Below are positions 1 to 44,000 of a stretch of 64,000 bases of DNA, one piece after another (position 1 is the stretch's first letter; each line of letters starts with the position of its first letter). Both the position numbers and the translations under genes were made by a program. Below the pieces are notes generated by a model. That model was given only the letters and a program-made list of their open reading frames with translations. It searched no databases and was not told where the DNA came from. Where the stretch lies: the NCBI GenBank assembly GCA_963693365.1, contig CAVNZM010000004.1:8767968-8831967 (forward strand), written 5' to 3'. The DNA comes from Amoebidium appalachense. Lineage: Eukaryota > Protista > Ichthyosporea.

Positions 1-427
1 CCGGGGGTTAAAGTTGCAGCAGTAAGCAGAAGCAAGAAAAATATAGATAGGAACTCAGGAGACGGGGCTTCTAGGAAGCTCCCCCGTCGATACCTAAGTC
101 GATACTTCCCTGGCTAACATACTACACCAGCTGAAAAGAATTAAGTCCCGAAGGCCACAGAATTCGTAATCAGAGGGGAAAATATGAGATTTGACCCACG
201 CCGCAGGGTAGTAACACGCTTACTAGGGCGGAACTTTATCGTCTTCGAACGGAAAGCTATGCCCCCGGATGTCAGCCGGAAATATGGTATCACCCATTGC
301 TTTGGGCTTGAAAAAAGCCAAACCGATAGTCCGAGTTATGTTACGCCGGCGGGTAACATGCCGCATGGGTTCCAAGGGAGCTGTCGCCAACAGAGCGGTG
401 TGTGCATGCGTGCGCGTAACGCAATGT
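1..427 (-). mobile_element. Poly(C)-anchored element, subfamily B, 5' portion (continues off window)
   Basis: Matches 27607-28033 with only two substitutions seen; ends in a G-run at 428. Confidence 0.85.
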
Positions 428-498
428 GGGGGGGGGGGGGGGGGGGGGAAGAATGAGAGAGAGATAGAGAGATAGAGGGGGGGGGGGGGGGGGGGGGG

Positions 499-41000: not shown

Positions 41001-44000
41001 CACACACACACACACACACACCCAACACACATGACACACCCCACCCCACCCCACACCAACCTACCCCCTTCTAATGAGGTGAAGGGGTTGAAATTCGGAT
41101 ATTGTGAATGGATGACTTGGGCCCCCCTGAGGATGGACTCTGCTCAGTGGCATACTCATTTTGTGTGCTTTGCATCACCTCTATGTCACACCTAATTGTT
41201 TTGTGTGTCGTGAATGTGTAACTTGTAATTCGTTCTCTGTAACATGTTTGACTATTCCTCCTCCCTCCCCCCCCCCCCCCTCCCCCCCCCCCCCTTCCCA
41301 GCTCCCCTTCCCCCCTTCCTTCCAATCATTCCCCCCCTTTCTGCACCCTTCCTCCAGCCCTTCAGCCCTCCCTCCCTCCTTACCTCCCTCGCTCCCTCAG
41401 CCTCCCCCCCCCCCCCCCCCCCCCCCCCCCCCTTCCCTCCCTCCTCTCTTTCCTCCGTCCAACCCTACCTAACTCCCTTGTGCCCTCTGTCCGTCCCCAA
41501 GTCCCCCAAACCCCTTTCCAAAACATGACGTTCTTCTTATTCCTTTCTTTGACCATTCCCTTCCATCATGTTCACAACAGAAACGGCAGGCCAAACAAAC
41601 GTATTTCCCCCCCCCCCCCCCCCCCCCCCCCCCCCCCCCCCCCCCCACCCCAACCTCAACCCCAACCCCATTCCCACCGCCCCGACGTGAGGACGTACTC
41701 ATCAGATGTTGCATACCCTTTATGTGAGCTTGTCTTTGGGACCTCTGTATTGTGATGTCCGTCGTAGTGAATGGGTGTTTTCTATTTTGTAACACTTTCT
41801 AACCCCGTTTCCCTGCCATCCCCCCCCACCCTCCAGCGGCTTGGGACCGTCGCTTTTCATATTCCTTCGTTGTCTGCTTCAATGGCCTACAAAGGCATAA
41901 ACACCATGTTTTTTTTCGAGTACACACATACACGCACGGGCGCGTGCGCGCGCGCGCACACACACACACACACACGCGCGCGCGCGCGCGCACACACACA
42001 CACACACACACACACACACACACACACAGTTCCCCTTGCAGCGCTTATGATTGGCCGGGATCTCGGGTTGATGGCTGGAGGTTTTGTGTACAGATACAAG
42101 TCGCTGGAGCCTCCGGTGGGTGCATGCACCACGTGAAACCACGCAGGCACACGCGTGCACGCGGGCACACACACACACGCACACGCACACAACATACATA
42201 CATACACACCGAGAGAGAGAGAAGGGGGGGGGGGGGGGGGGGGGAAGAGAAAGAGAGAGAGAGAGAGAGAGAGAGAGAGAGAGAGATTTAAACACACAAG
42301 CACGCAGACACACACAGATTCATGTTCGTGAGCCCGCGTGAGCACACATACAGGAGGGGGGGTAAGAGAAGGAGGGAATGATTGAGGGAGAGGAAGGGGG
42401 AGGGAGGGGTGAGAGTGGTTTTTATTTTTTGTTTCTTTTTTTTTGGGGGGGGGGGGGGGGGGGGGGGGTAGAGAGAAAAAGAGCATCGATATGCGGCTAC
42501 GCACACAAACACGTACAGGCATGCAGGCACACGCAGATCCTGTCCACATATACAAGTTGCCACCCGCTAATTCTTCTCCCATGTTGCCGAGCCCCACCCA
42601 CTCACTCTACATGCTTTCCTTGCATGTGTGTGTGTGTGTGTGTGTGTGTGTGTGTGTGTGTGTGTGTGTGTGTGTGTGTGTGTGCAGTGGTGGTGGTGGT
42701 GGTTTTTTTTTTTTTTTGGGGGGGGGGGGGGGGGGGGGGGGGCTTGTGTGTGTGTGTGTGTGGGCGCACGCGCTCTTGTGTGTGTGTGTGTGGGCGCGTG
42801 TGTGCACGCGTGTGCAGGTCCGCATTCATATGGGTGGATGATCGTGTCTGTGCACGTATGTGTACGTGTAAACCTGGCTGTGTACGTGTGCTCCTACAGA
42901 TCACCGTCTCCAAATACTTCGATGTAACCCACGGTACAACCGAGTTTCGCCCGACCACTATTAGCAAGGTAGCGACCCCCCCCCCCGTTCATGTGTACTT
43001 CGTACTTTATGATACTCTCCCCCACCCACCACCCACTAACCCATCCATCCATCATATGCATTAAACCCTATACACACAACCTAGAGATCACACGACCCCC
43101 TCCAATGGTGGCCAGGTTAAGTTCCCCCTCTATTTCTCTTTGTCTCCATGTCCCCCCCCTCCCCCCTTTCCCCCTCCCCTCCCCCAACCCCCCCCCCCCC
43201 CCCCCCCCCTTCCCCCCTCTGCCCCCTCCTCCTCCCCTCCCCCCTCACCCCTTCCCTCCCTCCCCTTCTCCATAGGTTAGGGAGTCGGGGAGCTTTGTAG
43301 AAGCCCGGCTGATGCTCTACTTCTCTGCTTGTTGTCGTTGTTTTTGTCTGCTTGCATTTTTGTAGACCCTGTTTTCGTAGGTTGCTGCTCTTTGAACAAC
43401 CCTGCTCGTCTTTGGCCAAGACGGGTGGACTCGCCTATTGCTGTTGAAGCAAAGTATGGGTTGGGAGTCACGTGCGAGAGGTTATAGAGTCGAAATTCAT
43501 GCTTATGTGAAGGCATAGGACCCACCCTGATGATAGGCTCTGATCAAGGGTCTTCAGCCTGCACGCTAAATTGTTTGATTTCGGATTTCCCACTTTTGTG
43601 ACGTTTTGTTGTTGCTCTTAGTTGCCTCCTCCGTATTCCCAACCCTCTAACGCATACATCAACCCCCCCCCCCCTCCCCCCTCCCCCCCCCCCCACACAC
43701 ACACACACCACCCCACCCCTGCCCTCCCTTCCCTCGTCATACCGACACCCACACACACCAACGCGTTGCCATTGCACATAAGATATTCTGCTCTGTTAAA
43801 TTACCCTCCACACGTCCCCCTCCCCCCCCCCCTCCCTCGGCCAAACACACACACACACACACACCATTCGCTACAGTAATGCGATCATTGATCTAGGAAA
43901 AGAAAGTTAATTCGATCTTTTTTTTGACGGTAAAAAGAAAAACATGTTGTGACGGCAATAATCCCCAGGTCAACACGGCCCTTCAGCTGAGTCTGCTTGG

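Follow-up and report, generated by a model that had tools for sequence, protein, structure and literature searches.

Naiads are Penelope-like retroelements (PLEs) of animals, 3.4 to 4.4 kb long, that encode an N-terminal GIY-YIG endonuclease and a reverse transcriptase (RT) and prefer (TA)n targets (PMC8557442). Craig et al. (2021) report no canonical hammerhead ribozymes in Naiads, only "core" and "half_core" motifs, and flag cores with a second half 35 to 50 nucleotides (nt) off on either side (PMC8557442). For Chlamys PLEs, a (C)n target, 5' truncation (median, 128 bp), and a location in introns throughout have been reported (PMC8557442; PMC9977147). Among hammerheads with permuted block orders, Eckert et al. 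(2023; PMC10085705) validated type SGC and assumed block C to be uninterruptible; they list none in known organisms' genomes other than one doubtful bacterial GCS case, with SGC coming from metatranscriptomes and CSG consisting of two sequences, both metagenomic. Here we examine a C-tailed repeat in 64 kb of Amoebidium appalachense DNA (contig CAVNZM010000004.1, positions 8,767,968 to 8,831,967; "the window" denotes this whole 64,000-nt stretch). Five of its copies carry a predicted hammerhead whose catalytic block is split by two inserted helices, and this split-core architecture, together with its recurrence in Naiads, is our main finding.

A predicted split-core hammerhead

We scanned both strands of the window for hammerheads in all six block orders. 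The scan returned five matches, all in the S-G-C order and all sense with respect to the host gene, with GAAA placed 34 to 35 nt before CUGAnGA; the reversed window, used as a control, gave one weak match. A scan for the split-core form recovered the same five copies, with the upstream stem II in all five and helices X and Y in four (the fifth is truncated there), and gave no matches in the reversed window or in 40 shuffled strands. The initial annotation had overlooked the ribozyme and had otherwise treated the element as a retroelement or a hosted RNA. In the longest copy (27345 to 28043, minus strand, in an intron of a mitochondrial-carrier-like gene), the predicted ribozyme spans approximately 27433 to 27581, with G10.1 at 27548, cleavage after 27513, GAAA at 27485, and CUGAGGA at 27451. 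Complete predicted ribozymes are also carried by minus-strand copies at 2287 to 2613 in a LIS1 intron (G10.1 at 2508, cleavage after 2472, GAAA at 2440, CUGAGGA at 2406) and at 30947 to 31288 in the carrier-like gene, with C-runs on both flanks (G10.1 at 31183, cleavage after 31147, GAAA at 31115, CUGAGGA at 31081), and by a diverged plus-strand copy at 43275 to 43662 in a CRLS1 intron (G10.1 at 43428, cleavage after 43462, GAAA at 43492, CUGAUGA at 43527). The fifth copy, at 2701 to 2943 on the minus strand in a LIS1 intron, has the core and stems I to III; 5' truncation removes helices X and Y.

The blocks of the predicted core come in the non-circular S-G-C order, and A9 is separated from G10.1 by two additional helices. 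Hairpin Y immediately precedes the 10.x strand of stem II, which is situated upstream of block S; helix X pairs the strand that follows CUGAnGA with the one before hairpin Y. CUGAnGA, GAAA, the A15.1-U16.1 pair, H17, and the G10.1-C11.1 pair are present in all five copies; the cleavage triplet is GUU, and the predicted cut falls 168 to 200 nt upstream of the C-run. Aligned contigs contained no core-position variants above the listing threshold. The predicted structure shares with types SGC and CSG the CUGAnGA, GAAA, and UH core, the crossing stems I-III, and the cyclic block order but departs from them by two inserted helices and a stem II strand that is no longer attached to CUGAnGA; unlike Eckert's examples, it sits in a eukaryotic nuclear repeat (PMC10085705). 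Judged from sequence, the split-core order is not one of the six permutations in Eckert et al. (2023) and seems to be undescribed. A literature search that took in few subscription papers found no prior account of a split-core hammerhead or of retroelements with SGC or CSG hammerheads; on these permutations it found just Eckert et al. (2023), which PMC13725137 cites in its references only. Exact-pattern scans found no match in metagenome contigs, viral contigs, or prokaryote genomes. A CPEB3/HDV-like match at 27762 to 27850 (E = 1.5) was set aside because P1 and P2 were lacking by eye.

In the split-core alignment, 96.5% of 143 cells were paired and four pairs had changed on both sides; slid-partner controls were 26 to 48% paired, and one alignment row was off by one column in stem II. 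Stem III was 100% paired, with two double changes, stem II co-varied, and stem I comprised 2 to 4 bp. Stem II of the longest copy contains a single mismatch, private to that copy; at position 27546, the pair-restoring letter accounts for 332364 of 332738 in depth. Our first model was a plain type-SGC hammerhead, in which stem II would form from the strand 2 nt after CUGAnGA, and it was replaced by the split-core model once the Naiad 3' ends had been read. We now regard that plain form, or a two-state switch, as unlikely. The S-G-C order is there, the downstream stem II is feasible, and its pairing is also conserved (96% of cells; 98.1% for the whole structure); one- or two-nt inserts have precedent (PMC10085705). 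Stem II energies are alike in the copy with CUGAUGA at 43527 (-6.0 versus -6.4), and in the mutated copy with CUGAGGA at 27451 the downstream strand does better. However, the downstream stem II is the weaker of the two, leaning on G-U pairs with no double-sided changes, and its strand is already used in helix X, whereas the upstream strand offers co-varying Watson-Crick pairs; anchored pairs gave the same picture, with Watson-Crick covariation for the upstream strand and G-U-rich pairing for the downstream one. Moreover, the upstream pairing recurs in Naiads with unrelated sequences.

For this comparison, 21 Naiad consensus 3' regions in the supplement of PMC8557442, where 550 to 600 nt are displayed, were read by eye and named from list order; the sample is biased, because three of the records were reached by motif search. 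The split-core fold was seen in 7 of the 21 (Plae, 4_Dst, Obim, Ovul, Bfor, 3_Chem, and 2_Movir) and plain type CSG with intact cores in 5 (nematode/spider Parc, 2_Nbra, 3_Nbra, Hpol, and Smim); the displayed sequence of the other 9 held nothing clear by eye.

Several points speak against an active split-core ribozyme. Only three distinct subfamilies stand behind the covariation, both ribozyme scans were written after the motif had been seen, stem I has just 2 bp before a mismatch in the copy with CUGAUGA at 43527, and no copy has its 5' end at the predicted cleavage site. Taking these together with the pairing evidence, we estimate at about 0.65 the probability that the ribozyme is active in the predicted split-core fold and, likewise, that this seventh hammerhead topology is a functional, overlooked signature of Naiad-like PLEs that a protist-like genome would share with ctenophores, cnidarians, ostracods, and octopus. 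If the fold cleaves, hammerhead wiring would extend beyond the six orders assumed possible, and non-circular hammerheads would be placed in nuclear genomes. A possible and directly testable reason why Naiads seemed to be hammerhead free is that descriptors assumed the canonical order. The fold would also bear on the role of PLE ribozymes, and thousands of sense ribozyme copies in housekeeping introns would constitute a natural test of how well splicing tolerates cut pre-mRNA.

The repeat family and its affinities

Self-comparison and profile search of the window, with leave-one-out tests, identified 18 segments of the family. Leave-one-out searches of 17 segments gave 13 at E values of 1e-5 or below (12 intronic copies and the copy at 5704 to 5797), three between 8e-5 and 4e-3, and one at 0.2; the best match in the reversed window had an E value of 0.036, and a weak profile match at 56384 to 56406 (E = 1.6) was excluded from the counts. 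We graded the 17 intronic copies as 13 firm (the 12 intronic copies at or below 1e-5 plus the copy at 1 to 427), 3 moderate, and 1 weak. In DNA run X1, 8371 and 9299 contigs aligned to two copies, the latter number to the longest copy. Summed depth on that copy was ~9e5 near the 3', or C, end, ~9e4 in the 5' part, and 7 to 10 beyond 28046, although summed contig depth is not equivalent to copy number. These data imply that the family numbers thousands of copies at the least, with an element length of at least 700 nt and with 5' truncation, which is evident both in the 3' end shared among copies and in the approximately tenfold drop in summed depth toward the 5' part. In run X9, three contigs run on into other sequence past the 5' end (28043) of the longest copy, which at ~700 nt is non-coding and possibly truncated itself; the full element may be longer.

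C-runs occur on both sides of the copies. Of the 18 copies, 12 have four or more Cs in a row within 12 nt on the 5' side (background, 19%), and 16 have such a run within 25 nt on the 3' side (background, 29%; one 3' end is off-window). Copy boundaries were taken from profile matches, so that these flank counts possibly lean toward C-runs. Because C-runs stand on both flanks, a (C)n target is a better reading of the "C-tail" than a tail of the poly(A) kind. Neighbours are arranged head to tail at 2124 to 2943 and 1 to 598, back-joints occur in DNA contigs, and the loose ends and back-joints in the run X1 contigs are filled with G-runs. The retroelement behaviour and priming at G/C runs proposed in the initial annotation fit the 5'-truncation gradient and the C-runs on both sides. 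Folding of the whole element was unremarkable (z = -0.47), as expected because the core is pseudoknotted. A short GC-rich hairpin ~110 to 150 nt upstream of the ribozyme (27660 to 27690 and 43285 to 43310) is common to two diverged subfamilies.

From its sequence features, the repeat is probably a PLE of the Naiad/Chlamys kind. It shares with Naiads 5' truncation, apparent partial tandems, microsatellite targeting, and very high copy number but differs from them in having no open reading frame (ORF) in 700 nt, in its location in (C)n, and in its longer, hairpin-bearing ribozyme linkers. Its (C)n target, intronic location, short 5'-truncated copies, and a consensus that ends into C are features of Chlamys and of the non-autonomous Chlamys-N4_cRei, yet the split core was seen in none of the seven Chlamys 3' ends read by eye. 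This last point counts against the assignment, as does the mixed affinity itself, with the ribozyme pointing to Naiads and the (C)n target to Chlamys. We infer PLE membership only indirectly, because no RT or GIY-YIG endonuclease gave a Pfam match in the 120 window ORFs of at least 70 amino acids (aa). Likewise adverse are the window copies' lack of any visible pseudo-long terminal repeat (pLTR)-flanked ORF, inverted copy, or inverted-tandem structure and our failure to find an autonomous partner element. PLEs of this kind show pLTRs built from partial tandems, inverted 5' copies, and a 30- to 40-bp tail. Literature listings and passages on a protist lineage guessed for the window did not mention PLEs.

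Two other hammerhead-bearing groups invite comparison. Non-LTR retrozymes (bioRxiv 10.64898/2026.07.22.740005) are, like the present repeat, non-coding hammerhead repeats, derived in their case from PLEs; they carry type I hammerheads, form tandem arrays, and are depleted from Xenopus introns. The present copies, in contrast, are dispersed, 5'-truncated, intronic, and sense, and no CGS (type I) hammerhead matched in the window. Since vertebrate retrozymes are intron depleted, it is worthy of note that LIS1, the carrier-like gene, and CRLS1 keep intact sense cores in their introns. The endonuclease-lacking (EN-minus) PLEs Athena and Coprina also have a hammerhead beside a C-rich end that joins G-rich DNA with fixed polarity, but theirs is an attachment to telomeric overhangs with canonical hammerheads (PMC8557442).

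Orientation of the intronic copies

Seventeen of the 18 segments are intronic, and in all 17 the strand with the C-tail is the host gene's sense strand. The profile search and a check of host strands thus uphold the earlier claim that all intronic copies are co-oriented with their hosts, and the lone non-intronic copy (5704 to 5797) does lie on the minus strand, as had been stated. Strands were supported by Pfam exon matches for LIS1 (LisH, minus), IST1 (Ist1, plus), and CRLS1 (CDP-OH_P_transf, plus) and, for the carrier-like gene, by four minus-strand exons that match P0001 at 97 to 100% identity. The copies occupy 9 of 24 introns in four of the five genes examined, some intron ends being approximate by a few bases. 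Of the earlier per-gene split, five copies in LIS1 and three on the plus strand in IST1 stood; the four in a membrane-protein gene and five in CRLS1, all co-oriented, become five in the carrier-like gene and four in CRLS1. As to precedent, the word "orientation" is absent from the main text of PMC8557442 and, in PMC9977147, refers to other elements; a literature search that took in few subscription papers gave no description of PLE orientation in introns.

The statistical weight of this pattern depends on what is counted. At 50:50, the probability that all copies are sense is 1e-5 per copy and 0.002 per intron; with the pooled run mix these values become 0.005 and 0.03 to 0.06, respectively, given the run mix of each intron itself the probability is 0.22, and per gene it is 0.06 to 0.28. 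Seventeen is not the number of independent events, because the copies are clustered and partly head to tail. In the nine occupied introns, sense-strand runs of at least 10 number 64 for C and 7 for G (46 and 7 when runs touching a copy are excluded); in the 15 introns that lack the element, the numbers are 25 and 26 (Fisher p = 5e-5). These counts do not bear out the position of the initial annotation that the bias is left unexplained by the targets on offer. Much of the orientation bias can be put down to local target skew and clustering, which makes it less striking on its own; it is genuine but weaker than first claimed. Orientation follows the gene strand (-, +, -, +) and not the chromosome, and the near-identical copies at 2701 and 17133 lie on opposite strands; a polarity set by replication direction is therefore unlikely, because orientation flips with each gene.

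In target-primed reverse transcription into such sites, the G-run strand serves as the primer. The element would therefore come to lie on the C-run strand, so that its orientation is the polarity of its target and a sense copy requires a G-rich template strand. We give roughly even odds to the proposal that the all-sense copies arose because insertion polarity follows the C-run strand, aided by loss of antisense copies. A PLE RT, acting in trans or else encoded in the 5' part of the element that is not seen here, would use a 3'-OH of the poly(G) strand as its primer and begin copying at the 3' end of the RNA, in many cases breaking off early. Each insertion would leave or lengthen C-runs on the same strand, so that later copies accumulate in the same orientation. 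Antisense copies may be purged, since they would burden the pre-mRNA with G-runs and with sites that resemble donors and acceptors, and the ribozyme would cut after the GUU triplet upstream of the C-run, a sense intronic cleavage that may be tolerated. A selective filter of this kind against antisense insertions has been described for mammalian introns (PMC3088655); the initial annotation, which weighed insertion bias and hosted RNA, had overlooked selection. The best donor-like score is 6.3 bits on the antisense strand and 4.7 bits on the sense strand (median of real donors, ~7.4), and acceptor-like sites are also stronger on the antisense strand, in a small, non-independent test. Many acceptors in the window introns are preceded by (CA)n and not by a pyrimidine tract.

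The proposal has weaknesses. The balance of runs in element-free introns means that a pre-existing C skew is not demonstrated, while all nine occupied introns lean toward C (0.002 at 50:50). Short terminal relics at other C-runs showed no sense excess (197 versus 81 runs, p = 0.36). The splice-site test used 22 to 23 approximate sites, some of them mis-called, in related copies, and its acceptor mean was distorted by one placeholder value.

Reading cause and effect the other way, insertion may be coupled to transcription: a nicked, transcribed poly(G) strand would prime, copies would be born sense, and the C skew would be a result. A template-strand G-quadruplex that stalls polymerase, with transcription-coupled repair, is a possible source of nicks in the transcribed strand. 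The gene-by-gene orientation, with the near-identical pair at 2701 and 17133 on opposite strands, fits this idea, as do the C lean of every occupied intron next to balanced empty ones and the 33 sense-strand G-runs of at least 10 that carry no antisense copy. We nevertheless hold it to be unlikely, given the probability of 0.22 under each intron's own run mix and the lack of excess relics at other sense C-runs. A classical R-loop, moreover, predicts the wrong result. R-loops form from G-rich nascent RNA on a C-rich template, with the G-rich non-template strand exposed (PMC4617957), so that the R-loop priming suggested in the initial annotation is disfavoured because it would give antisense copies, the opposite orientation; here the template is the G-rich strand. 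A different possibility is that the pattern reflects a small sample, in which a few sense founders were multiplied by head-to-tail copying and re-use of C-runs and the genome-wide bias is weak. Only four genes and nine introns are involved, the per-gene probabilities are unexceptional, and adjacent head-to-tail copies (2124 to 2943 and 1 to 598) and back-joints in DNA contigs show the raw material for such growth. Most copies are not local duplicates, however, because the best matches of many lie in other genes (2287 with 30947, 17133 with 2701, and 41075 with 27345), and nine of nine introns would still have a probability of 0.002 at 50:50; we judge this explanation improbable.

The remaining alternative, which we think very improbable, is an RNA that depends on its host, either like a small nucleolar RNA (snoRNA) or as a retrozyme freed from pre-mRNA by its ribozyme, and that is kept where it is transcribed. 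The ribozyme lies on the sense strand in five of five cases, no promoter was noticed (no dedicated promoter search was made), and contigs of the element are present in runs X9, X14, and X10, whose RNA status is guessed or unrecorded and which, like all 24 runs listed, consist of strandless contigs; RNA runs X16 and X17 gave no element contigs, which is no proof of absence. Yet 12 of the 17 intronic copies lack a complete core and are equally sense (11 are truncated or decayed fragments and one runs off the window edge), and reliance on a host would explain source copies and not the direction of dead ones. Rfam searches returned only noise (E = 0.7 to 9.8) or nothing for two element copies and only low-complexity noise for the whole window, with no credible snoRNA family, and the 5' ends of the element copies vary; a C/D-box reading of the element was dropped, and the hosted-RNA reading of the initial annotation fares poorly. 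The most far-reaching combination, in which the seventh topology is joined to a polarity set by transcription, telomerase-like priming on nicked template-strand poly(G), and thousands of self-cleaving pre-mRNA sites, is in our view doubtful as a whole.

Host genes, other copies, and neighbouring features

The LIS1/PAC1-like gene (5' part) occupies 1 to 4271 on the minus strand (PF24951 LisH_PAC1, 1.7e-9). Besides the two ribozyme-bearing copies, its introns hold the 5' part of a long copy at 1 to 427 that runs off the window edge and has two differences from 27607 to 28033, a 3' fragment at 499 to 598 (leave-one-out E = 4e-14, the measure also given for the fragments below), and a 3' fragment with a decayed core remnant at 2124 to 2232 (1e-12), all minus strand and sense. 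IST1 (13201 to 20818, plus strand; PF03398, 9e-9) hosts three plus-strand sense copies: a 3' fragment at 13725 to 13834 (8e-6), a short 3' fragment of moderate confidence at 16499 to 16544 (8e-5), and a young 5'-truncated copy at 17133 to 17304 with ~90% identity to the minus-strand copy at 2701. The carrier-like gene (25786 to 33111, minus strand), named from its homologues and with four exons matching P0001, adds to the two copies described above a decayed 3' fragment of moderate confidence at 26190 to 26310 (3e-4) and 3' fragments at 30073 to 30185 (5e-16) and 31456 to 31541 (7e-7), again minus strand and sense. In the CRLS1-like CDP-alcohol phosphatidyltransferase gene (35050 to 45297, plus strand; PF01066), the intronic plus-strand sense copies other than the one with a complete ribozyme are a 5'-truncated copy with CUGAGGA at 41075 to 41244 (3e-18), a decayed 3' fragment of moderate confidence at 41682 to 41802 (4e-3), and a possible 27-nt fragment, graded weak, at 42986 to 43012 (0.2).

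The 3' fragment at 5704 to 5797 (minus strand, 2e-6) lies outside the annotated introns. It is preceded by a donor-like site near 5839 and sits ~430 nt downstream of a minus-strand ORF of 370 aa (6230 to 7339) that has a Cys/His cluster and no Pfam match; the fragment may be in an unannotated intron or a 3' untranslated region and hence transcribed.

Elsewhere in the window, an F-box and leucine-rich-repeat gene at 10957 to 12450 (plus strand) has no long intron and is interrupted by a stop and a change of frame; it is possibly a pseudogene. The gene at 47800 to 52016 (plus strand) has four introns with balanced C- and G-runs and no element copy; its terminal exons, which gave no Pfam match, resemble what we take to be a glycogen-binding CBM48/AMPK-beta domain. 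The stretches at 62500 to 64000 and 23780 to 24010 hold separate repeats that have no relation to the element: degenerate ones rich in AT and in GATATC, and a short unit that is duplicated.

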